A DNA stretch of 37,161 bases, taken from a virus. Within the stretch, counting starts at the first letter, position 1; each line of letters begins with the position of its first letter. Shown here piece after piece: positions 50 to 9,872 of this stretch. The notes below the pieces were generated by a model that was given only the letters and a program-made list of their open reading frames with translations, had not been told where the DNA came from and did no database searches. The translations under genes and the position numbers were made by a program. Location of the stretch: UHGV virus genome UHGV-0110762. The stretch is one strand, 5' to 3'.

Positions 50-259
50 TTAACCCTCACTGATAAGCTGGCGAACCGTATGATTAACCATTGAGTCGAC
101 CCCCCATTTTTCAGACTCGCAGACCCAAACAGATCCGTCTACGATTTTGCCTGTGAGAAGTCCGTTTTCAACCCAACGTTTAATGGTTCGATTATCCGGG
201 ATCGAGTCTTTGGTAAATTCGCGTTTACCCCACTGACTCGCCTTCATTAGTTTTGCCAT
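50..259 (-). CDS. Phage excisionase (Xis/AlpA-like small DNA-binding protein); ORF track gives 50..340 but internal ATG at 259 with GGAGAA RBS is preferred
   Basis: Translation MAKLMKASQWGKREF...IKRWVENGLL...GKIVDGSVWV resembles the excisionase/AlpA winged-helix family; position at the prophage left edge next to where an integrase is expected. Confidence 0.6.
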   Translation of the reverse strand: MAKLMKASQWGKREFTKDSIPDNRTIKRWVENGLLTGKIVDGSVWVCESEKWGVDSMVNHTVRQLISEG

Positions 260-309
260 GACAGATTCTCCATACAGCCCGGCTGCACCCGGGCTTTCAT
301 ATTTATAAA

Positions 310-873
310 TTATTGCTGGTGGGGCAGTAGACGTTGCCAAATTGCTGAAACGTATTTGGCCTGGTGGCGGGCATCGGCCAGTGCGTTATGTGCAACCCCA
401 TCGAATGGCATATCTCGCTTAGGATCGAAACCCACAACTCTGCCTAATGTGACGATGGTTCTGACGTCGTGATCGTTCCAAAATTGCCACGGGCAAACCT
501 GGCCGGCGCGCTCATATGCGCCGCGCAATATAACGTTGTCGAAAGTAGCTCCATTGCCCCAAACTTTTAAATATTTCGGGTTATCAGAATGTCGGTTAAT
601 GAAATGGCTCAGTTCAGATAGGGCAGACGATATCGGCATCGCATCATCAACACAGATTGCTGATCGTGCTTCTGAGCTTTGTCTTAACCACCACAGAATA
701 GTGTCACCATCTGGCACCGCTCCCTGCTCCATAGCGCTTTCAAGGTTAACGGCGGTGTAAAACTCCTGACCCAGTTCACCGCTTTGCGGATCGAAGAACA
801 CGGCACCAATGGAGACAATAGGGGCATTCGACTTTTTGCCCATAGTTTCAAGGTCGATCATTAAGTTGTTCAC
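310..873 (-). CDS. 3'-5' exonuclease, DnaQ-like DEDDh family
   Basis: N-terminal MIDLETMG (Exo I motif) and C-terminal H-NALADA (Exo III motif with His); 187 aa, typical of small phage exonucleases. Confidence 0.7.
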   Translation of the reverse strand: MNNLMIDLETMGKKSNAPIVSIGAVFFDPQSGELGQEFYTAVNLESAMEQGAVPDGDTILWWLRQSSEARSAICVDDAMPISSALSELSHFINRHSDNPKYLKVWGNGATFDNVILRGAYERAGQVCPWQFWNDHDVRTIVTLGRVVGFDPKRDMPFDGVAHNALADARHQAKYVSAIWQRLLPHQQ

Positions 874-894
874 GTTAAATATTCTCCTGTTTGG

Positions 895-1149
895 CTATTC
901 AGTAATCTTGCCGCGACGCATCGCACGTAGGTTTTTCAGGTTTGTTTCCTGCTCTATTTCGGCACATATTTTGCGATACTCATCATGTTCCACTCGTTCA
1001 AAATCTTCGTTAAAGCGTTTGATGCTAATCGTTCTCAGCCCGCCATCATTGCGTTTGATTCGGACCGAGTGATCGCTACAGCTATGGATAATTACGGGCC
1101 AGTTGCTACTGTCCGTGTAGATTTGACCGCGCCGAATCAGGCTAAACAT
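895..1149 (-). CDS. Hypothetical phage protein (84 aa)
   Basis: Intact ORF tightly packed in the leftward operon; no recognisable motif. Confidence 0.45.
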   Translation of the reverse strand: MFSLIRRGQIYTDSSNWPVIIHSCSDHSVRIKRNDGGLRTISIKRFNEDFERVEHDEYRKICAEIEQETNLKNLRAMRRGKITE

Positions 1150-1151
1150 TC

Positions 1152-1856
1152 TTATTTTTTCTCCTGCTCTGACTGTTCTTTGATATGCAATCGAGGTTCC
1201 CCGTCTTTCGGCTCAGGCCACTGGCGCGCCATGTTCACTTTCAGCTTTTCTTCCATCGCAGCTGTGATTTCACCGTCACTGATACCGGCGCGCCGCTGGG
1301 CGTCCCATAACAGGAACTGCATGTCAGCCCACTCGCTGAGGTCGTCAGGTTCTGCGGCAGCTTCCAGCGCCTCTTTCGACAGGTGTTTAAACGGGCCAAC
1401 GGGACCAACATCGCCGAAAGTCTTATCTGACCATTCAGCGTGTTCACGGCGAACCTGTTCGCGCTTACTTACAGGTTGGCTACCCTGAAGCATGGCGGCG
1501 CGGCAACGATTCCAGCCCTCTGCCATCCATTTTCTATGCGTGTCGAGTGCAGGGTCATTAACGTCAATTTCATCCGGTACCGCTGGATGCGGTAACTGTG
1601 GTGCTGCGTAGAGTGGCGTCAGATCATAGCAACTAATGCTGTAGCGATCTGCGTCAACCCGATTGGTTATTGCCGTGCGTTCATCATCGCAAAATTCCTT
1701 CTGCATAGTCACCCAAGCCATAGGCTCCTGCTCCATGCTGGCGAGTAGTTGGCGGGCCATTGATTTCAGCATTGCAATATCAGCATGCCCCAGGGTGTAA
1801 CCAACCTTTAAATCGTAAACTGCTTGCACCTGTTGCTCTTTCGTAAATTTATCCAT
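1152..1856 (-). CDS. Hypothetical phage protein (234 aa); C-terminal region weakly reminiscent of MazG-like all-alpha NTP pyrophosphohydrolases
   Basis: Long ORF with 1-nt spacing to neighbours; C-terminal segment EWADMQFLLWDAQRRAGISDGEI resembles the E..aD.l..l..la...gi pattern of MazG-like proteins (tentative, from memory only). Confidence 0.5.
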   Translation of the reverse strand: MDKFTKEQQVQAVYDLKVGYTLGHADIAMLKSMARQLLASMEQEPMAWVTMQKEFCDDERTAITNRVDADRYSISCYDLTPLYAAPQLPHPAVPDEIDVNDPALDTHRKWMAEGWNRCRAAMLQGSQPVSKREQVRREHAEWSDKTFGDVGPVGPFKHLSKEALEAAAEPDDLSEWADMQFLLWDAQRRAGISDGEITAAMEEKLKVNMARQWPEPKDGEPRLHIKEQSEQEKK

Positions 1857-1857
1857 C

Positions 1858-2334
1858 TCATTCCCCCTTTACGCCAATGCCAGCGGCGGCACGTTCGGCC
1901 TCACTTTGTTCCCAAAACCACTTGTGAAGCGCCATAAGCTCTTCGTCAATCGGTGCATATTTGCGGTCAAAGTAGGCCTGAGCATCTTTCTCAGATTCGT
2001 CAGGCAATTCGCCAGGTCCAAACAGCGTGTTATAAATCCATGCCAGCCCATTCTTAGCGTCGCCAGTTGCCTGCCATTCGATAATTGCAGCCTGCATGAC
2101 CAGAATGTTTTTCCCAATTAACAGGTCCAGTTCTTTGTTCCGGTTGCGGATGTATGCATTCTCACTTTGTAATTCAGCGTTTCGCTTCTCTGCGGTTTCC
2201 AACTCATCCAGCAGCGCCAGCACAGCTTCCGGGCTTGCTTCATCCTGCCAGGCGTCAGAGGTATCACTGACAGAGCGGAGCATTATTTCTTCCTGCGCCG
2301 CTTCACGCAGCGCCTGTTTGTTGAGTGCTGTCAT
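1858..2334 (-). CDS. Hypothetical coiled-coil protein (Ead/Ea22-like, tentative)
   Basis: 158-aa ORF with predicted coiled-coil N-terminus (ELETAEKRNAELQSENAYIRNRNKELD); start overlaps the upstream gene stop (ATGA-type overlap with 2331..2585). Confidence 0.5.
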   Translation of the reverse strand: MTALNKQALREAAQEEIMLRSVSDTSDAWQDEASPEAVLALLDELETAEKRNAELQSENAYIRNRNKELDLLIGKNILVMQAAIIEWQATGDAKNGLAWIYNTLFGPGELPDESEKDAQAYFDRKYAPIDEELMALHKWFWEQSEAERAAAGIGVKGE

Positions 2335-2585
2335 TGGGCTGCTCCCTGTCTGGCCCTATTCAATAGCTGGTTAAACATCATGGTTAGGCTGTTACTGCAA
2401 CCAAACGGCATATCGTTAATGCGGTATGTTGGAATGCCCTTGCGAACACCAGACTTCACGATCCGGCCGGTGCCATAGAGCTGAGATAATGCTCCGGCGA
2501 CCGCGGGTGTCTTTTTGTTCATACCTTTGGCGATTTCACCGCTGGTGGTATTCGGATGAGCCTGGAGATATTCAAATACGGTCAT
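2331..2585 (-). CDS. Hypothetical small protein, possible winged-helix DNA-binding fold
   Basis: 84-aa ORF; translationally coupled to neighbours on both sides. Confidence 0.45.
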   Translation of the reverse strand: MTVFEYLQAHPNTTSGEIAKGMNKKTPAVAGALSQLYGTGRIVKSGVRKGIPTYRINDMPFGCSNSLTMMFNQLLNRARQGAAQ

Positions 2586-2749
2586 GGCGTTTTACCTTTA
2601 CGTTCCTGTTCCAGTTGCACCAGAGACTCTTTTAATGCTGCGAACGTAGCGTCCAGTCTGGTGGCGACTTCGCGCATAAGCGGCGCATGTTTTGGTGGCA
2701 ATTCAGCAACGGAGGCAAACGCCTCCGCTACGAGTTCTTTTACCTTCAT
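2582..2749 (-). CDS. Small hypothetical protein (55 aa), absent from the ORF track (below length cutoff)
   Basis: ATG at 2749 overlaps the stop of the upstream HD-domain gene (tcat at 2746-2749 = ATGA on minus strand) and its TGA overlaps the ATG of the downstream gene (tcat at 2582-2585); translation MKVKELVAEAFASVAELPPKHAPLMREVATRLDATFAALKESL... Confidence 0.35.
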   Translation of the reverse strand: MKVKELVAEAFASVAELPPKHAPLMREVATRLDATFAALKESLVQLEQERKGKTP

Positions 2750-3312
2750 GCGGCGCATTGGCGCTGCTCCATCAACTCGTTAAAGCGATTGATGAACATG
2801 CCGTATGACTGGCCAGGACGAACTGGGTTGATAATGAATAAATCCGTTGGGACAACTCCCTCGAGGCATGGCCAAATGGAACCTTCGTCAATCTCAAAAT
2901 CTCGGCGTTCGCTGGCAAGCATCACCAGGTCGGCATATTTCACAGTTGGGTGTTGTTCCGTCGGTAGGCCAAATTTCTGGCGAATAGCAGCGTCTACGCG
3001 AGCTTCGATCGCCTGGTAATCCGGTAGCAGGCGCTTAAGAGGCGAGGGGATATCCTGCAGGTAGGCTTCGGCGGCATCATGAAGCAGTGCTTCTAATGCA
3101 AACTCCTGCGGAACGAGGTGGCTGGTTAAAACGCTATGCTGGCCGACGCTATAAAACTCAGGAAGATGCCCTGCAAAACGGCAGATATGAGACAAAGCGG
3201 TAGCAATATCCTCGATCACGATATCGTCCTGTTGGATATCGAGGTAATTAAAATGTTTGCCGGATAATGTCTGAATGTAGCTCATGGTTTTCCCCATATT
3301 GGCGCGCTGCAC
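2746..3312 (-). CDS. HD-domain metal-dependent phosphohydrolase, YfdR-like (5'-deoxynucleotidase family); start may be at 3285 (MSYIQ)
   Basis: H..LTSHLV and LLHDAAEAY motifs (HD signature); size about 180 aa as in E. coli CPS-53 YfdR. Confidence 0.7.
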   Translation of the reverse strand: MQRANMGKTMSYIQTLSGKHFNYLDIQQDDIVIEDIATALSHICRFAGHLPEFYSVGQHSVLTSHLVPQEFALEALLHDAAEAYLQDIPSPLKRLLPDYQAIEARVDAAIRQKFGLPTEQHPTVKYADLVMLASERRDFEIDEGSIWPCLEGVVPTDLFIINPVRPGQSYGMFINRFNELMEQRQCAA

Positions 3313-3377
3313 CGCGCAGATTTTGGTTGTACGAATCCCTCGCCGGTTGGCGATAATTAATGGAATTACGCTTCAAT

Positions 3378-3401
3378 AAATCCCCGCGGCGCCGGGGATT
3401 T
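3378..3401 (-). terminator. Hairpin (AAATCCCCGCGGCGCCGGGGATTT) followed by T-rich tract on the minus strand, downstream of the YfdQ-like gene
   Basis: Near-perfect GC-rich inverted repeat flanked by A/T runs in the 100-bp gap between two minus-strand genes. Confidence 0.45.
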
Positions 3402-3413
3402 AATGCAGAGCAA

Positions 3414-4241
3414 TTAGGCTTTAAAGTTACCGATGAAAGTTTCCACTGATTCACCTTCGAACTTGCTGATCAGCAAATCGCGGAATTCGTTGGCGATCTC
3501 TTCTTCCTGGGCTTCAAGTTGGACGATGCGCAGAACAAAGCAGGGTTCATCGCTGGTCAGCAGGCTGTTACGCAAGCTAAAGCGGCGTTCACCCAGACCT
3601 TCATACGGCACACATTTGAACTCGAACGCCACAGGCATTACGTCTTTGCTGCTTGCTTCAACGCTTTGCATCAGAGATTTTTTACCAGCGAAATCACCAG
3701 TTTCATGGTCCTGCTGTGTTGCTTGCTGAATAGTGATACGACGCACAGCCTGAGCCGCCTGTGAAATCTGCATCGTATTGCCATCAGCATCAAACGCCAG
3801 CAGGTAATCGCTCCAGTCTTCCAGCCATTCCGCGATTTGCTTTTGCTTCAGGCGTTGACCATCGATCTGCAGTAACGCTCGGAACGGGGCGGTTTTCTTC
3901 AGGGTGATTGAAGCAACGTTATCGGCGTGACCTGGATTATCCAGGGTGCCGATGTTGAACACTGAACGGGCGGTCATGTTGTCAGCGTCAATGAAGCAAC
4001 GAGCTGGCTCGCTGGCGCTGGCATAACCTTTAGAATAACGGGCGAAGTCGTCAATACTGGTTGTGGTCATTGCGCCACGAAAGCGGAAACGCTCCAGAGA
4101 AAAACGCTCGAGGCTTTCAACGCCAGTACCCTCTGGCAGTAATGCGGTCGGGCAAGCCAGGTCCTGAATATCATCCAGGTGATAACCGGAAAGAACCAGG
4201 TCTTTGACCTGCTTGAAGGTGCCGCTGTCTAACTGAGACAT
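3414..4241 (-). CDS. YfdQ-like protein (DUF2303 family, function unknown)
   Basis: 275 aa, the size of E. coli CPS-53 YfdQ, and sits between YfdR-like and YfdP-like genes in the same order as in CPS-53 (recalled, not searched). Confidence 0.6.
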   Translation of the reverse strand: MSQLDSGTFKQVKDLVLSGYHLDDIQDLACPTALLPEGTGVESLERFSLERFRFRGAMTTTSIDDFARYSKGYASASEPARCFIDADNMTARSVFNIGTLDNPGHADNVASITLKKTAPFRALLQIDGQRLKQKQIAEWLEDWSDYLLAFDADGNTMQISQAAQAVRRITIQQATQQDHETGDFAGKKSLMQSVEASSKDVMPVAFEFKCVPYEGLGERRFSLRNSLLTSDEPCFVLRIVQLEAQEEEIANEFRDLLISKFEGESVETFIGNFKA

Positions 4242-4297
4242 AAAAATTCCTTAATTGCTGATGTTCGAAGTGGTATCAGTGAGTTTGTTGCTGCGGA

Positions 4298-4669
4298 TCA
4301 CTGAGCCGCTTTAAGCTTTCCATCCACCGCGCCGGTGATCCCGAATAGTTGCCCCTGATCTTCCTGCAGTATGGTGAGCTTCCCGCCTTTGTTGACCCAC
4401 ATAGGGGTTTCGGTTGTGTCCTCTTCGGAGGCTTTACCACGAGGTGTCGGGGTGCTGTAGTTCAGCTTGTGCTTGATCTTCACGCGCTTCTCTTCAACGG
4501 AATTACCCATGCGCTCAAAATCAAAGGTGAGGACTACTTTGCCTTTGTTGCCGTTGTTCAGAACGCCAAGCGCGGTGGTATTAAGTGCTGCCGCGATTTT
4601 GTTCATGAACACGCCGGCATCCAGTTCGCCAAGAAAATCTGGCACTACGGTCATGCGGTCATTACTCAT
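4298..4669 (-). CDS. YfdP-like hypothetical protein; ORF track extends to 4855 but the ATG at 4669 (MSNDRMTVV) with GAGGGT RBS is preferred
   Basis: C-terminal 124 aa look protein-like; the N-terminal extension in the ORF track is Cys/Trp/Gly-rich and lacks an RBS. Confidence 0.55.
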   Translation of the reverse strand: MSNDRMTVVPDFLGELDAGVFMNKIAAALNTTALGVLNNGNKGKVVLTFDFERMGNSVEEKRVKIKHKLNYSTPTPRGKASEEDTTETPMWVNKGGKLTILQEDQGQLFGITGAVDGKLKAAQ

Positions 4670-5280
4670 GGTTTTACCCTCGTTAAGGCGGCTGCCACCG
4701 CCGAACTTTCTCCATACACAACAGAGAAGGGCACCTGCATTGGTTGGCGGCTTGAGAGACCGCTTTCTTTTTGCCCGGGTGGATTGGGTTATGAGCCCGT
4801 CGCCCGGTGATGCCCTTGTCTGTTGTGTAAAAAGGGCGGTACCGAGGTAGAACATTATCTTCGTCCCCCTTGCATAAGGTTGAAGACCCTGGTACCGCCA
4901 AGACTACACACAGCATCTGGTACAGCTACTACGGGTTTACCACATCAAAAAGAGCACTACCGCGTTCTGCCGCCCCATCCTGGCTTTTGGTACTGCAACG
5001 GCTGCGAGATGTTTTTTGCATGCCAGCGCTCTTTTGGTTATGGACTCGTCTCTTCCGAGGTGTCACACCTGATCGCCACGCTGGTGAAACGTCTCTGGCT
5101 GCCGTACACGCCTGGCTTGCATATTCCGGCTACCCGCTGGATCTGGATATGTCTTGCAAGGAATCCCCGGACTGCTGCGGCACATGTGCCATATGCCGTA
5201 CTGCAACTGCTGCCTGTCTTTTCACCACATCAGGCTCAGTGGTATTCTTGGAGTTCTCACACAGCCAAGAAGATAAACCT

Positions 5281-5514
5281 ATGAATAACGATATTATTGA
5301 GTTAAGACTCACTGCTATTGAAGCTGCGATTAAGACCATTTCAGCTGCAATATGTGCTAATGAGGGCCCACTATCAGATGACCTGCATAACCAAATACAA
5401 TTATTGCGCGATCAACTGTCAAGCCCAGAAAACACTGTTAAACAGGAAGCCATCACCTATCAAACCATTAAGCTTCTTGATTCTCTTAATTGCGACCCGT
5501 GGGATCCGTTTTAA
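5281..5514 (+). CDS. Small hypothetical protein (77 aa) in AT-rich island of the immunity region
   Basis: ATG at 5281 begins a helical-looking peptide MNNDIIELRLTAIEAAIKTISAAICANEG...; sharp drop in GC content relative to flanks; weak RBS. Confidence 0.3.
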   Translation: MNNDIIELRLTAIEAAIKTISAAICANEGPLSDDLHNQIQLLRDQLSSPENTVKQEAITYQTIKLLDSLNCDPWDPF

Positions 5515-5689
5515 AAAACTTCTCATTGAAGGCCGCCATTTTAGATTTTGAACGAGCCCTTCGTTCGGAATGAAGGGTAAGTTGCATGTCCGATAGAGCG
5601 CTAAAAACGGCAGCATTGAATGCCAGAAACTCCGATTCATCACTGCACTCAGCAGTAATTTTCCCGTTAACAACCAACTCTATCTTCAT
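5486..5689 (-). CDS. Small hypothetical protein (67 aa) convergent with and overlapping the 3' end of the 5281..5514 ORF
   Basis: ATG at 5689 (MKIELVVNGKITAECSDESEF...); immediately downstream (leftward) of the OL-like operator repeats, so it would be the first gene of the leftward early transcript; RBS poor. Confidence 0.25.
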   Translation of the reverse strand: MKIELVVNGKITAECSDESEFLAFNAAVFSALSDMQLTLHSERRARSKSKMAAFNEKFFKTDPTGRN

Positions 5690-5728
5690 TCCTGATGCCC
5701 ACAATGTTCGTTGCTGATGGATTTAATA

Positions 5729-5774
5729 TTAGACATCTTACATTTACAGTCAAGTCTATTTTGTAAGTTTGCTT
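5729..5774. promoter_or_regulatory. OL-like operator pair: two inverted copies of the 15-bp motif also found at OR
   Basis: TTAGACATCTTACAT (5729-5743) and TTGTAAGTTTGCTTA (5760-5774) match the OR motif TTAGCAWTCTTACAT in 13/15 and about 10/15 positions. Confidence 0.45.
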
Positions 5775-5797: not shown

Positions 5798-5819
5798 AAG
5801 CCCGCATGATCAGCGGGCT
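5798..5819 (-). terminator. Rho-independent terminator downstream of cI (minus strand)
   Basis: Stem AGCCCGC / loop ATGATCA / stem GCGGGCT followed on the minus strand by a TTTTTT run, 18 nt after the cI stop. Confidence 0.6.
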
Positions 5820-5836
5820 TGTAGGAACCAGAGGGG

Positions 5837-6469
5837 CTAAAGGTCAATGATAATTTGTTTAACTATCCCAATTAGATTGGTCTCTTGATTCACCTCAATG
5901 GGTTTAAACGCAGGATTCAGTGGGATTAGGTACGAAAACGGTGGGTCTATCGCCAGCTTTTTTAAAGTTGCCTCACCACCAGATACCGTTTGAGCAACGA
6001 CAATTTTACCGTTTGCCTCATCCACGAAGCCGAACTCTGGTTCAACAATAACAATAGAACCTTCAGGAATACTCAACTCCTGGCTAGAAGTCATTGAATC
6101 TCCCTTAACCCTCAAAGCAAAGGCGGAATCAGAAAGTTTTCGAGTGGTTTTCACTTGTTCATTATTAGGATTTCCAATTACTTCCGTCCAATTACCAGCT
6201 TGCACCCATGATATGAGAGGGACCTCTCTGGCAGACATCAAGTTGATGTTAATGCCATTTTCGATATCGCCTGAACCAAAAACCAACCATTCTGGCGAGC
6301 ACTGAAGGCATTTACACACCAATATCAAGTTCTCACCAGAAAGTTTTGTTAAATCACTTTCCCACTGGGTCACAGCAGACGCGCTTACTCCTGCCCACTC
6401 AGCCACATCGCGCTGGGTAAGTTTTTTCTGCTTTCTTCTAAATCTCAGTCTGCTGCCAACGGTATCCAT
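5837..6469 (-). CDS. cI: CI-like prophage repressor (N-terminal XRE HTH, C-terminal S24 LexA-like peptidase)
   Basis: N-terminal LTQRDVAEWAGVSASAVTQWE HTH; C-terminal ALRVKGDSM...KK Ser-Lys dyad typical of S24 autoproteolytic repressors; divergent from a Cro-like gene. Confidence 0.85.
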   Translation of the reverse strand: MDTVGSRLRFRRKQKKLTQRDVAEWAGVSASAVTQWESDLTKLSGENLILVCKCLQCSPEWLVFGSGDIENGININLMSAREVPLISWVQAGNWTEVIGNPNNEQVKTTRKLSDSAFALRVKGDSMTSSQELSIPEGSIVIVEPEFGFVDEANGKIVVAQTVSGGEATLKKLAIDPPFSYLIPLNPAFKPIEVNQETNLIGIVKQIIIDL

Positions 6470-6569: not shown

Positions 6570-6773
6570 ATGCATAAAGGGACAGTCGTCGACTACTACG
6601 GCGGCATTTCTAAAACCGCAGTTGCCTTAGGGGTAACTCACAGTGCCGTATGTCAATGGGGTGAAGTAATCCCAGAAAAACAGGCTCTTTACATTGAAAG
6701 AATTACGAACGGGAAGTTGAAATACGACGCTTCTCTCTACAGCAAACTTAACAATTCTCAACACAAGCAGTAA
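6570..6773 (+). CDS. cro: Cro-like small HTH regulator
   Basis: 67 aa, AAGAGGA RBS, HTH-like ISKTAVALGVTHSAVCQW; divergent from cI across the operator region. Confidence 0.7.
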   Translation: MHKGTVVDYYGGISKTAVALGVTHSAVCQWGEVIPEKQALYIERITNGKLKYDASLYSKLNNSQHKQ

Positions 6774-6796: not shown

Positions 6797-7348
6797 GTGG
6801 GTAATGAACCTAGTTGGAAAGTCGAACGTCAGCCAGCCTGGCTGGTGGTCGCAATAAAAAAAACCATTACCGACCTTCCTGGTGGGTATGCCGAGGCCGC
6901 GGAATGGTTAGGAACTTCAGAGAACGGGTTGTTCAACCGTCTCCGCACTGAGGGCGATCAGATATTCCCGTTGGGTTGGGCGATGGTTCTACAGCGTGCT
7001 GGTGGTTCGACTCATATTGCTGATGCCGTTGCGCGCCATTCTCAAGGCGTATTCGTACCGCTGGCAGATGTTGATGATTTGGATAACGCCGATATTAACC
7101 AGCGCCTGATGGAGTCCATTGAATGGATTGGTCGTCATTCTACCTTTGTGCGAAAGGCTACTGCTGATGGGGTGATTGACGCAGATGAGCGTGCTCAGAT
7201 AGAGGAGAACAGCTACCAGGTGATCGCGAAGTTTCAGGAGCACGTCACGCTGCTTTACCGAGTTTTTTGTGTCGCTGAAAAGAGTGACGCCCGCGAGTGT
7301 GCAGCTCCGGGCGCCTTGGCGAACAACTCTTCGAGTATGGAGAAATAA
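6797..7348 (+). CDS. CII-like / early regulatory protein (tentative functional call)
   Basis: GTG start with AAGGGGG RBS directly after cro; 183 aa; position equals lambda cII; functional assignment is by position and vague family recollection only. Confidence 0.45.
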   Translation: MGNEPSWKVERQPAWLVVAIKKTITDLPGGYAEAAEWLGTSENGLFNRLRTEGDQIFPLGWAMVLQRAGGSTHIADAVARHSQGVFVPLADVDDLDNADINQRLMESIEWIGRHSTFVRKATADGVIDADERAQIEENSYQVIAKFQEHVTLLYRVFCVAEKSDARECAAPGALANNSSSMEK

Positions 7349-7680: not shown

Positions 7681-7700
7681 CGGACGATCATGAGCACTAA
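7521..7700 (+). CDS. Alternative small ORF (59 aa, GTG start) upstream of the replication initiator
   Basis: GGAGGG RBS 11 nt before GTG 7521; translation VRELNRRFKDHRGVPVRVIRWEPETQRVIYLRDGYPHECFSPLEHFRQKFREITDDHEH looks protein-like; overlaps the start of the O-like gene by 11 nt. Confidence 0.3.
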   Translation: MRELNRRFKDHRGVPVRVIRWEPETQRVIYLRDGYPHECFSPLEHFRQKFREITDDHEH

Positions 7701-8556
7701 ATTAACCGGCTACGTATGGGATGGTTGCGCAGCGTCGGGCATGAAGTTGTCCAGTGTTGCGATCATGGCTCGCCTTGCTGACTTCAGCAGCGATGAAGGT
7801 GTGTGCTGGCCGTCAATTGAAACTATTGCTCGCCAGCTTGGCGCAGGCCCGAGCACTATCAGAACGGCAATCGCAAAGCTTGAAAAAGATGGCTGGCTCA
7901 CACGTACACAGCGCCGTAATGGTAACCGTAATGCTTCGAACGTGTATCGGCTGAATGTGGCGAAACTTCAGACTGCCGCATTTTCTCAACTGTCAGATTC
8001 TGACACGTCAAAATCTGACGCATCAAAATTTGACGCCTCAAAAACTGACCCGTCGAAATCTGGCAAAAACGATGGTTTTGACCCGTCAGAATCTGGCGGG
8101 GATCCGTCAGTAAAATCAAAACAAGATCCACAAGTAACTTCAAAACCCTCTTGTCCGGTTGCGGCGCAACCCGACCCTGAGGTTGTGATTACTGATCAGG
8201 CCAGACAGGTCTTGTCTTACCTGAACCAGACAACTGGCTCACGCTACCAGGTATGCAGTACGTCGCTGGAGAATATTCGCGCCCGTCTTCGGGAACAATT
8301 CACGGTTGATGACCTGTGCCTGGTAGTGGATTACAAAAATGCCGATTGGCGTGATAGCGAGCAGGCGCAATACCTCCGCCCGGCAACTCTGTTCATTCCA
8401 AAAAACTTCCCTGGTTACCTGCAAAGCGCGACCAAATGGTCCAGTGCTGGCCGGCCTGAACGCGTTAACGGCAAATGGGAGACTAACTCAGCCAGCCGCG
8501 CAAACTTCCAGAGTGTTGATTACTCACTGCCAGAAAATTCGGGGTTCCGTTCATGA
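7690..8556 (+). CDS. Replication initiator, lambda O-like (N-terminal HTH origin-binding domain, low-complexity linker, conserved C-terminal domain)
   Basis: N-terminus SVAIMARLADFSSDEGVCWPSIETIARQLGAGPSTIRTAIAKLEKDGWL is a typical phage replication-protein HTH; contains tandem DNA iterons inside the coding region as lambda O does. Confidence 0.7.
   Translation: MSTKLTGYVWDGCAASGMKLSSVAIMARLADFSSDEGVCWPSIETIARQLGAGPSTIRTAIAKLEKDGWLTRTQRRNGNRNASNVYRLNVAKLQTAAFSQLSDSDTSKSDASKFDASKTDPSKSGKNDGFDPSESGGDPSVKSKQDPQVTSKPSCPVAAQPDPEVVITDQARQVLSYLNQTTGSRYQVCSTSLENIRARLREQFTVDDLCLVVDYKNADWRDSEQAQYLRPATLFIPKNFPGYLQSATKWSSAGRPERVNGKWETNSASRANFQSVDYSLPENSGFRS
7992..8118. repeat. Iteron array (candidate phage origin): five tandem 15-bp repeats of the GTCARAATCTGAC type (7992-8064) plus two degenerate copies (8084-8096, 8106-8118)
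   Basis: Direct repeats gtcagattctgac / gtcaaaatctgac / atcaaaatttgac / ctcaaaaactgac / gtcgaaatctggc at a 15-bp period; each unit has inverted ends (GTCAG...CTGAC); they encode the repetitive SDTSKSDASKFDASKTDPSKSG peptide. Confidence 0.55.
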
Positions 8557-9872
8557 TGACCAATAAATATTGCCAGGTGCTGGCGGCACTGCGTAGCAAA
8601 CCAGCTCACGAATTGAAAGAAGTTGGCGATCAGTGGCGGACACCGGATCTGCTTTTTTGGGGGATCAACGCGCTATTTGGTCCATTAGTTCTGGACTTGT
8701 TTGCTGACGACGACAACGCGAAGTGCCCAGCATGGTACACCGCCGAAGATAACGCGCTGACACAGCACTGGTCTGAACGTCTGGCAGAACTGGGCGGCGC
8801 TGGTTATGGCAACCCTCCGTATAGCCGTTCGCAGTACCACGAGAAGCAGGCGATCACCGGCATGACGCATATCATGAACTACGCAGCAGCCCAGCGCGAG
8901 AAGGGCGGTCGCTATGTATTCCTGATAAAAGCCGCGCCGAGTGAAACGTGGTGGCCAGAAGATGCCGATCACATTGTATTCATTCGTGGTCGTATTGGGT
9001 TCGATCTGCCTGTGTGGTTTGTACCTGCTGACGAAAAACAGAAACCCACCAGCGCGTTTTTTGCCGGTGCCATAGCTGTATTCGATAAGTCGTGGCGTGG
9101 TGAGCGGTTCAGCTATATCAACCGCACAGAACTGGAGGCAAAAGGGCGGGCGTTTATGACTTTGGCGCAATTTGCTGCCAGCAAGTCTCAACCTGCAACT
9201 GCCACACCTCCTGCAGCTGATAAGCCAGAAGCTGAGTTGCCACTCACTCAGAAAGATATTTTTGATGTCAGCGGCGTCGAGGCGTGGGCATGCGTTAGAG
9301 CTGCGTTTGGCGATAAAGAAGAATACACATTCAGTGAATCGAAGTTTGGGCATACCTGGGCGGCGGATTCTGTTGAAGCACCGGAATTCACTCAGGTATC
9401 ACCATTAACGATCGACAAAGCGAAGCTGCTTATTCGTGAGAGTATTTTGTTCGGTGTGGATGAGTGGTTGTTGTCGATTGAATTCGATGACGCTGCAGTG
9501 CGCCTGGATATGTCGGAACGTATTCGCACTGTTGCCCTTGAAGCATCCGGTGAATATGGCATGAACAGCACTGATTTCATTGCAGCCATGGGAAGCCTGG
9601 ATGTTTCCAGATGGTCCAATATTCGCCAGATCCGCATGCACATCCGTGAGAAAGCTAAACCAGTAGCGGATCCGCTTCCCGAGTCCCGTATCTGGCCACT
9701 GGAGGTTGGGATTGTGTTCAACCAGGTAGATGGCGCTGACATGTTGGATGAATCACAGCAGAACAAGCTGAAAGCCAACATCAATCAACTCTGGCTGGAA
9801 CGAACGGCCACCAGCGAAATCATTACTGCCGCTTCTGAACTTGTTCGCAATATGCGGGGAGAGGCCGCGTGA
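8553..9872 (+). CDS. Phage Dam-family N6-adenine DNA methyltransferase fused to a roughly 225-aa C-terminal domain of unknown function
   Basis: N-terminal about 215 aa carry the phage Dam family pattern (WRTPDLLF...LDLFADDDNAKC..YTAEDNAL...GNPPYS); ORF continues uninterrupted for a further 225 aa; ATGA overlap with the O-like gene. Confidence 0.65.
   Translation: MMTNKYCQVLAALRSKPAHELKEVGDQWRTPDLLFWGINALFGPLVLDLFADDDNAKCPAWYTAEDNALTQHWSERLAELGGAGYGNPPYSRSQYHEKQAITGMTHIMNYAAAQREKGGRYVFLIKAAPSETWWPEDADHIVFIRGRIGFDLPVWFVPADEKQKPTSAFFAGAIAVFDKSWRGERFSYINRTELEAKGRAFMTLAQFAASKSQPATATPPAADKPEAELPLTQKDIFDVSGVEAWACVRAAFGDKEEYTFSESKFGHTWAADSVEAPEFTQVSPLTIDKAKLLIRESILFGVDEWLLSIEFDDAAVRLDMSERIRTVALEASGEYGMNSTDFIAAMGSLDVSRWSNIRQIRMHIREKAKPVADPLPESRIWPLEVGIVFNQVDGADMLDESQQNKLKANINQLWLERTATSEIITAASELVRNMRGEAA

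Follow-up and report, generated by a model that had tools for sequence, protein, structure and literature searches.

The 37,161-nt virus genome UHGV-0110762 (the window, i.e., the whole stretch of DNA that was analysed) carries on its minus strand, at positions 310–4669, a block of genes that begins with yfdP, yfdQ and a yfdR-like gene. It is near certain that this block is the early-left operon, driven by the leftward promoter pL, of a temperate lambdoid phage of the LLS/ST64B/phiNP type. Our best explanation as a whole joins this identity to a mechanism in which products of the operon would lower replication initiation by the host, and we give it a probability of approximately 0.5. The operon is real but ordinary, one more instance of a gene block that the literature already covers, and its one feature that appears to be undescribed is a structured leader RNA at its head.

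The mechanism would run as follows. Induction or infection would lead to leftward transcription from pL, and the 20-bp helix of the leader would probably act as an RNase III-kind processing signal, as in the lambda N leader. Alternatively, the helix could be a transcription-elongation signal which sets the expression of the gene in the first slot. YfdR and YfdQ would then act on the host initiator, with DnaA domain I bound at Phe46, DiaA and DnaB competed, and initiation at oriC lowered. Such a block would suit a phage that has an O-type initiator and no helicase or loader of its own, and which would need the host's DnaB. YfdR may also have retained a nucleotidase activity (weak in the orthologue from Escherichia coli K-12), given its intact HD site, while the MazZ-like domain (expected to convert dGTP/dATP to deoxynucleoside monophosphate and pyrophosphate) and the DEDDh exonuclease would be independent add-ons and not partners of YfdR. 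We hold this specific combination, i.e., leader processing plus YfdR/YfdQ acting on DnaA, tentatively and at somewhat less than an even chance.

An initial annotation, made from the letters of this DNA, had placed the block in the early-left operon of a lambdoid phage, and the adjoining genes bear this out: a cI-like repressor lies immediately upstream, with cro and a CII-like gene beyond it (Table 1). A class of lambdoid phages has been described that lacks a Rec module, has many Chi sites and no N, and often encodes only an O-type replication protein (Zheng, Casjens et al. 2025, PMC12315714). On every point examined, the window agrees with this “no Rec module, high Chi” class. Pfam and PHROG searches of the early genes found no Exo, annealase, SSB or anti-RecBCD (Gam/Abc) gene. 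In the replication module, an O/DnaD-like initiator (HTH_36 plus Phg_2220_C) stands directly before a Dam methylase extended by an additional C-terminal region; as in LLS, the module encodes no helicase or helicase loader. A RusA gene is present in the nin region. Chi (GCTGGTGG) occurs 13 times on the plus strand versus twice on the minus strand, against an expectation from base composition of approximately 0.7 per strand. Ten of the 13 plus-strand sites lie between xis and the lysis region, a part of the genome that would form one packaged end if cos/pac is near the terminase gene.

Comparison with named phages places the operon further. LLS and ST64B share with the window the order repressor, long untranslated gap, yfdP, yfdQ, yfdR, small open reading frames (ORFs), DnaQ-type exonuclease and xis, and both carry the same leader RNA. 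The LLS type (LLS, ST64B and phiNP) also shares with it the absence of N and of a Rec module, O-only replication and a one-sided Chi excess (PMC12315714). The window differs from this type by its extra winged-helix-turn-helix (wHTH) protein, Ead-like protein, MazZ-type fusion and DUF4222 protein, and by a different immunity region with a 77-aa ORF on the opposite strand; DNA identity across yfdP-yfdQ-yfdR is just 78–81%. The K-12 prophage CPS-53/KpLE1 likewise has yfdP-yfdQ-yfdR first and in the same order, in a prophage arm that ends at xis/torI. However, CPS-53 has yfdS (DUF551) and yfdT, both missing from the window, where six other genes precede xis instead, and it has no leader RNA and has lost its repressor side.

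The second line of evidence is inheritance across relatives. We collected 80 viral contigs with a YfdQ 79–99% identical to that of the window, from a locus search which returned close relatives only, and checked each for the window's proteins. YfdP and YfdR are each found in 78 (some YfdP misses being loci cut at a contig end), followed by the 58-aa ORF (57), the exonuclease (46), the 84-aa protein (32), the putative Xis protein (21), the MazZ-like protein (9), the Ead-like protein (4) and the DUF4222 protein (2). The identity of YfdR is uncoupled from that of YfdQ (often approximately 70% beside 98%), pointing to a recombination joint in the gap between yfdQ and yfdR. We also examined 11 distant phages and prophages, from Vibrio, Xanthomonas, Halomonas, Thalassomonas, Psychrobacter, a Cellvibrionaceae genome and metagenomes. 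All 11 have a YfdP homologue immediately 5' of YfdQ, and none has a homologue, by tblastn, of the window's YfdR, PF16473 exonuclease or DUF550 protein.

The operon is a two-layered mosaic. Its head consists of the leader RNA and yfdP-yfdQ-yfdR, usually followed by the 58-aa ORF, and its second layer consists of exchangeable genes before xis: the wHTH protein, the Ead/Ea22-like protein, the MazZ-type fusion, the DUF4222 protein and the DEDDh exonuclease. Judged by sequence comparison, the conserved unit is the yfdP-yfdQ pair, to which enterobacterial lambdoids add yfdR, with the other nucleotide genes as independent passengers. Certain E. coli and Enterobacter prophages have rdgC in exactly the place of yfdP-yfdQ, with the same leader RNA before it and a yfdR-like gene after it.

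This pattern bears on a different view of the block, in which the HD protein, the MazZ-like enzyme and the exonuclease together reshape deoxynucleoside triphosphate (dNTP) pools or destroy nucleotide immunity signals, as anti-defence or takeover functions. The initial annotation had pointed that way, calling the operon enriched in nucleic-acid and nucleotide-processing functions. Three of its nine genes do encode such enzyme domains, but the HD, exonuclease and MazZ-like genes are not inherited together: their counts in the 80 relatives are 78, 46 and 9, and the distant phages have none of them. The enrichment is therefore a property of this mosaic and not a conserved system, and the notion of a coordinated nucleotide-processing set loses support.

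Taken singly, the enzymes look sound, which counts in favour of that view. All three catalytic centres look intact, and the genes sit at the early-left position. The MazG-like C-terminus, which had been proposed as a possibility, is real: besides its PF04447 match, the E..E and E..D ligands and the Arg align in register with those of S-2L MazZ (PDB 7ody, expect value (E) 0.0075; residues taken from PMC8342488). DUF550 enzymes are the “MazZ-2” type and hydrolyse dGTP, or both dATP and dGTP (PMC8342488). Residues 2–179 of the exonuclease match positions 1–177 of the 177 in PF16473, its DLE, FDN and H..AD motifs can be seen in the translation (checked by eye), and it is related to a solved 227-aa “Exodeoxyribonuclease” (PDB 8ken/8kel, E 5e-11).

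A precedent for cooperation between HD and MazG-like enzymes exists in the Z-genome phages. The Z-cluster of S-2L (DatZ, MazZ and PurZ) resembles the window in having HD and MazZ-type enzymes in one operon, with the MazZ ligands kept (PMC8342488). However, no PurZ was found among the early-left and early-right proteins scanned, a set which does not take in every long ORF, and no unassigned ORF of suitable size was noted in the ORF list. The absence of PurZ rules out a datZ-mazZ-purZ cluster, so the window phage is not a Z-genome phage. Its HD and MazZ-like genes are also three genes apart, its YfdR falls in the YfbR/Atu1052-like nucleotidase branch and not with DatZ, and nothing suggests modified DNA. 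Further points count against a joint nucleotide or anti-defence function: the nine operon proteins and the 77-aa ORF have no informative PADLOC match (only generic DEDDh and odd “DpdH” hits), literature searches gave no anti-defence data on these families, and the nucleotide affinity of K-12 YfdR is far below that of YfbR (PMC4776307). We therefore consider this view unlikely; single genes could have an effect on dNTP pools or defence, but the block as a whole has a better-supported reading.

We return to the preferred reading and to the protein on which its mechanism turns. The HD protein is 64% identical to K-12 YfdR over 178 aa. The initial annotation had counted missing metal ligands among the signs that would speak against its idea, but all are present: the His in GQH, the HD in LLHDAAE and the Asp in KYAD, belonging to QH, HDAxE and AD motifs which are invariant across the window's protein and 63 distinct YfdR-like sequences. 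Its HD segment aligns with YfbR and Atu1052, with a match to PDB 2gz4 at E 2.5e-13. The cut-offs of the YfbR families are missed (PF12917, 21.7 bits versus 25.9; NCBIfam NF003009, 17.7 versus 122). By these comparisons the protein is assigned as YfdR, i.e., related to YfbR but not YfbR itself.

For YfdR there is a published lead. When supplied in multicopy, yfdQ plus yfdR plus either yfdS or yfdT of CPS-53 suppresses over-initiation mutants of K-12 and inhibits oriC initiation, and yfdP is not needed for this effect (PMC4776307). K-12 YfdR binds DnaA domain I in a Phe46-dependent manner and competes moderately with DiaA and DnaB, and Noguchi & Katayama 2016 suggested a lambda-P-like role for it in the ancestral phage (PMC4776307). 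We take these data, with modest confidence, to be the best available mechanistic lead; it would fit the window phage because such a phage must borrow the host's helicase.

Several points weigh against carrying this lead over to the window. The DnaA effect was seen on multicopy overexpression only, with a cluster from a cryptic prophage; its authors concede a possible overexpression artefact, and deletion of the cluster gave no replication phenotype (PMC4776307). The K-12 effect requires YfdS or YfdT, neither of which has a homologue in the window, and the orthologues are just 57–64% identical to the K-12 proteins. The role proposed for the leader is read from its structure and position. Finally, the core function of YfdP-YfdQ is probably something other than the DnaA effect, since YfdP is dispensable in the K-12 assay, yet yfdP-yfdQ is conserved, and this without yfdR in distant phages.

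The pair itself is well defined as a unit. The window's YfdP and YfdQ are 59% and 57% identical to their K-12 counterparts, all 120 YfdP homologues listed carry PF27127, and YfdP is adjacent to yfdQ in 78 of the 80 close loci, as in all of the distant ones. The YfdQ family comprises 1,394 clusters at 50% identity (E up to 0.001) and is consistently acidic; taken together, the YfdQ and YfdP families are acidic to neutral. The structural model of YfdP (mean predicted local distance difference test score 81.9) has two helices on a three-stranded sheet and a disordered tail, and it has no informative match among solved folds. The same holds for the YfdQ model. RdgC/RexA-like, annealase-like and SSB-like folds were specifically sought for it, because rdgC replaces the pair in some prophages and because the pair lies between an exonuclease and an SSB in Vibrio podophages, and none was found. 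Hidden annealases or SSBs are thus ruled out on fold, and charge gives the idea no support.

A solved structure of a relative does exist. PDB entry 9o7m, titled “YfdQ protein”, has 36 chains of a single sequence, and the YfdQ family profile matches it at E 5e-87; its sequence is that of a Xanthomonas/Xylella phage YfdQ (e.g., in L006, Table 1). Going by this entry, YfdQ forms, or sits in, a large assembly, in which chains A and B might be something other than YfdQ. The entry is missing from fold libraries dated up to April 2026, no paper on it was found in the literature, and the PDB does not hold the neighbouring YfdP-like and 470-aa proteins of its source phage.

A large assembly would also suit a DNA-transaction module, which is another way to read the pair. 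YfdP-YfdQ, possibly with a 3'-5' exonuclease, would then act on single-stranded DNA, ends or recombination, in the slot held elsewhere by exo/bet/gam, erf/abc or rdgC. The constant adjacency of the two genes in distant phages, the exchange with rdgC behind the same leader and the window's lack of a Rec module are all in keeping with this. So is a report, as cited in PMC4776307, that deletion of yfdQ makes K-12 mildly sensitive to methyl methanesulfonate and H2O2. The neighbours of the pair are suggestive too: Vibrio podophages and metagenomic contigs have a string of genes for an RNase_T-type DEDD exonuclease, a CsrA-like protein, YfdP, YfdQ, (a RyR-domain protein) and SSB (Table 1). However, those exonucleases belong to another DEDD subfamily than the window's (PF00929, not PF16473), no similarity to an annealase, SSB, RdgC/RexA or nuclease fold was found in the YfdQ and YfdP models, and the acidic to neutral charge of both families also counts against such a role. 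The cluster also occurs alongside a complete Rec module in phage ArgO145, and a recombination role was judged unlikely (PMC12315714); Xanthomonas phage Usaquen similarly has YfdP-YfdQ together with its own recombinase, exonuclease and SSB. We regard a DNA-transaction role as quite unlikely.

The head module might instead serve mainly the lysogen, through stress tolerance or superinfection exclusion, at a low level of expression like that of lambda rexAB. Deletions of CPS-53 and of yfdQ or yfdS lower tolerance of H2O2 and acid (Wang et al. 2010, as cited in PMC4776307), and the defective prophage CPS-53 has kept the cluster. The slot is shared with rdgC, whose product has been likened structurally to RexA (PMC12315714). 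In the window, however, one strong terminator follows cI and a second one precedes the leader, so transcription of the repressor gene seems unlikely to continue into the operon. Xanthomonas/Xylella phages and Vibrio podophages have the pair too, and the stretches of them that were examined showed neither a repressor nor an integrase gene. A role mainly in the lysogen therefore seems improbable.

The remaining part of the preferred reading is the leader RNA, which runs for approximately 160 nt up to the yfdP start. Its closing stem, P1, encloses a three-way junction with a conserved hairpin (P2) and a variable one (P3), and is followed by hairpin P4 and the Shine-Dalgarno sequence GAGGG. In 50–67 of the 80 relatives, conservation extends over the 246 nt before the yfdP start, and the sequence further upstream is not conserved. 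Indels in this region are not multiples of three, which marks it as non-coding. For this reason, and because of its paired covariation, a 185-aa ORF at 4298–4855 is ruled out as the true yfdP, whose conserved start is 4669. A small upstream ORF (MEKVRRWQPP) is also ruled out as the leader's content, its frame not being conserved across variants. Positions 4667–4905 fold at −99 kcal/mol (z −4.9 versus shuffles). Directly 5' of the leader, the window has an intrinsic-terminator-like hairpin, and relatives have non-homologous GC-rich hairpins with a U-run at the same spot.

A covariance model (R1) made from 15 sequences has a single sense-strand match in the window, at 180.9 bits, with an antisense echo at 38.8 bits. 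It also matches once in each of 71 relatives, and likewise in LLS (166.5 bits) and ST64B (114.1 bits). CPS-53, the distant phages and the rest of the window give no match. Across 54 distinct leaders, in an alignment fitted to the model and therefore favouring its structure, 96.6% of cells are standard pairs and ten pairs have changed on both sides (79 cells). Not one of the measures is reached in any of 500 column shuffles, and sliding the 3' partners cuts pairing to 41–50%. Variants outside this alignment (L069, L070 and L081) keep P1 with a largely different sequence, as judged by eye. P1 is conserved through compensatory changes while its interior varies, and G·U pairs on the sense strand point to an RNA and not a DNA cruciform.

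The core motif of the leader occurs in representative genomes of 14 species, of which 12 are Enterobacterales; the other two records, Chryseobacterium and Geobacteraceae, may be contaminated or misassigned. The gene after the motif is yfdP in eleven, rdgC in one and an unrelated gene in one (at a locus edge), and the leader also precedes rdgC in the E. coli relative L002. The leader therefore belongs to the slot and not to the gene, which speaks against autoregulation by YfdP/YfdQ and favours a more general function in transcription or processing.

Our preferred reading is that the leader would be an RNase III-type processing site with a 5' stabilising hairpin, because its interior is replaceable and its long helix is kept. 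The lambda N leader and the T7 early mRNAs are RNase III-processed leaders, and they share with the window a long, near-perfect helix in the 5' leader. A put-like antiterminator, as in HK022, which is also a phage without N, is less well supported. The window has a single copy without a putR-like partner and no similarity to the HK022 pL-pR region, where R1 scores 6.2 bits at best, which rules out a put-like pair. The element also lies after and not before the neighbouring terminator, and has a closing stem and three-way junction in place of two free hairpins. Rfam has no match to the leader, a result that is uninformative on put by itself, as Rfam misses put in HK022 too. Put-like antitermination was suspected in LLS by the authors who described it (PMC12315714). 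In a broader alternative, the leader would be an undescribed cis-acting RNA that heads the early-left operons of N-less lambdoid prophages throughout the Enterobacterales and controls the first-slot gene by read-through, processing or translation, possibly being the antitermination or processing device that the LLS authors assumed, while yfdP-yfdQ would be a large-assembly early protein system of new fold, present in phages of several Gammaproteobacteria (enterobacteria, Vibrio, Xanthomonas and others). We rate this alternative as possible, though doubtful.

As to layout, ten successive minus-strand ORFs occupy 50–4669, with the putative Xis gene as the end of the operon as seen within the window. 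Family matches confirm the gene content as first named: exonuclease, YfdR-like HD protein, MazG-like C-terminus, DUF2303 YfdQ and YfdP. Translational coupling throughout, by overlaps of 1–4 nt, had also been described, and this stands only in part. The overlaps are of 13 nt (yfdR/58-aa ORF), 4 nt (58-aa/84-aa ORF) and 4 nt (84-aa ORF/Ead-like), but the next junctions are spacers of 1 nt (Ead-like/DUF550), 2 nt (DUF550/DUF4222) and 21 nt (DUF4222/exonuclease), and the head has gaps of 56 nt (yfdP/yfdQ) and 128 nt (yfdQ/yfdR; 101 nt if yfdR starts at GTG 3312). The N-terminal domain of the MazZ-type fusion has no assigned function. The Ead/Ea22-like protein has a coiled-coil N-terminus and, as its C-terminus, a portable acidic domain; its residues 46–145 match the PADLOC “DpdH” model (127 positions) at E 6e-36, a match that is unexplained.

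Table 1. Positions of the features discussed, in window coordinates unless a relative's contig is named
Feature	Position	Strand	Remarks
Putative Xis, small basic protein	50–259	minus	Excisionase position only; single weak helix-turn-helix family match
DEDDh 3'-5' exonuclease	310–873	minus	187 aa; PF16473, E 1.5e-75, full length
DUF4222 protein	895–1149	minus	84 aa; PF13973, E 4e-10
Fusion with C-terminal DUF550/MazZ-type NTP pyrophosphohydrolase	1152–1856	minus	234 aa; PF04447, E 4.5e-44, residues 136–230
Ead/Ea22-like protein	1858–2334	minus	158 aa; PF13935, E 9.5e-7; phrog_18739, E 2.7e-60
Winged-helix-like protein	2331–2585	minus	84 aa; phrog_1687 “MarR family”, E 5.5e-25
58-aa ORF	2582–2758	minus	phrog_12248, E 1e-34
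yfdR-like HD phosphohydrolase	2746–3285	minus	179 aa from ATG 3285; phrog_318, E 3e-98
yfdQ (DUF2303)	3414–4241	minus	275 aa, acidic, isoelectric point 4.8; PF10065, E 5e-66
yfdP-family gene	4298–4669	minus	123 aa; phrog_204, E 1e-41
Structured leader RNA	4667–4830	minus	Ends at yfdP ATG (4667–4669)
P4 hairpin	4687–4702	minus	GGCGGU-GGCA-GCCGCC
P1 closing stem	4809–4829 paired with 4715–4735	minus	20 bp
Intrinsic-terminator-like hairpin	4829–4899	minus	GGCGGUACC...GGUACCGCC then CUUUUU; minimum-free-energy fold
77-aa ORF	5281–5514	plus	Acidic; phrog_28250; between pL and leader
72-aa ORF	5486–5704	minus	Arg-rich stretch SERRARSKSK; no family assigned
Candidate pL promoter	5726–5753	minus	TTGACT-16-TAATAT; consensus scan only; position fits immunity region
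Strong cI terminator	5798–5820		
cI-like repressor	5837–6469	minus	LexA/S24 type
cro	6570–6773	plus	P22 type
CII-like gene	6797–7348	plus	
Replication module	7690–9872	plus	
Chi	315, 2541, 6841, 6998, 10171, 10322, 11445, 13570, 13749, 13878, 18073, 21392, 24306	plus	
Chi	9046, 9808	minus	
rdgC in yfdP-yfdQ slot	L002 5695–6612		
rdgC in yfdP-yfdQ slot	L105 2103–3017		Oriented copy
Exonuclease-yfdP-yfdQ-SSB string	L005 2155–5675		
Exonuclease-yfdP-yfdQ-SSB string	L007 2881–5320		Without CsrA-like gene
Exonuclease-yfdP-yfdQ-SSB string	L093 4821–8544		
Exonuclease-yfdP-yfdQ-SSB string	L094 5249–9599		
YfdQ gene matching 9o7m	L006 3839–4663		

The phage source is probably Citrobacter. The closest YfdQ proteins (96–98% identical) come from that genus, and any one E. 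coli genome or sequenced phage covers at most about half of the first 6.5 kb, which indicates typical lambdoid mosaicism. The segment with the 77-aa and 72-aa ORFs is common to none of the 80 viral relatives. An annotation of the 77-aa ORF exists in the E. coli relative L002 as well, and Citrobacter murliniae (L101) has a 100% identical copy.

The operon itself changes little, as its block type is already in print. Its leader and its head reach further, since approximately a fifth of enterobacterial lambdoid phages have no N, no Rec module and often no helicase loader, and a covarying RNA where their early-left operon begins offers a concrete, testable handle on the early programme of N-less phages. 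The yfdP-yfdQ pair is very widespread as an early pair, in phages of enterobacteria, Vibrio, Xanthomonas, Halomonas, Psychrobacter and others. The finding that the conserved unit is this pair alone, without yfdR or the nucleotide enzymes, shows which genes to choose for deletion and co-expression, and the assembly state of 9o7m could settle what YfdQ is.

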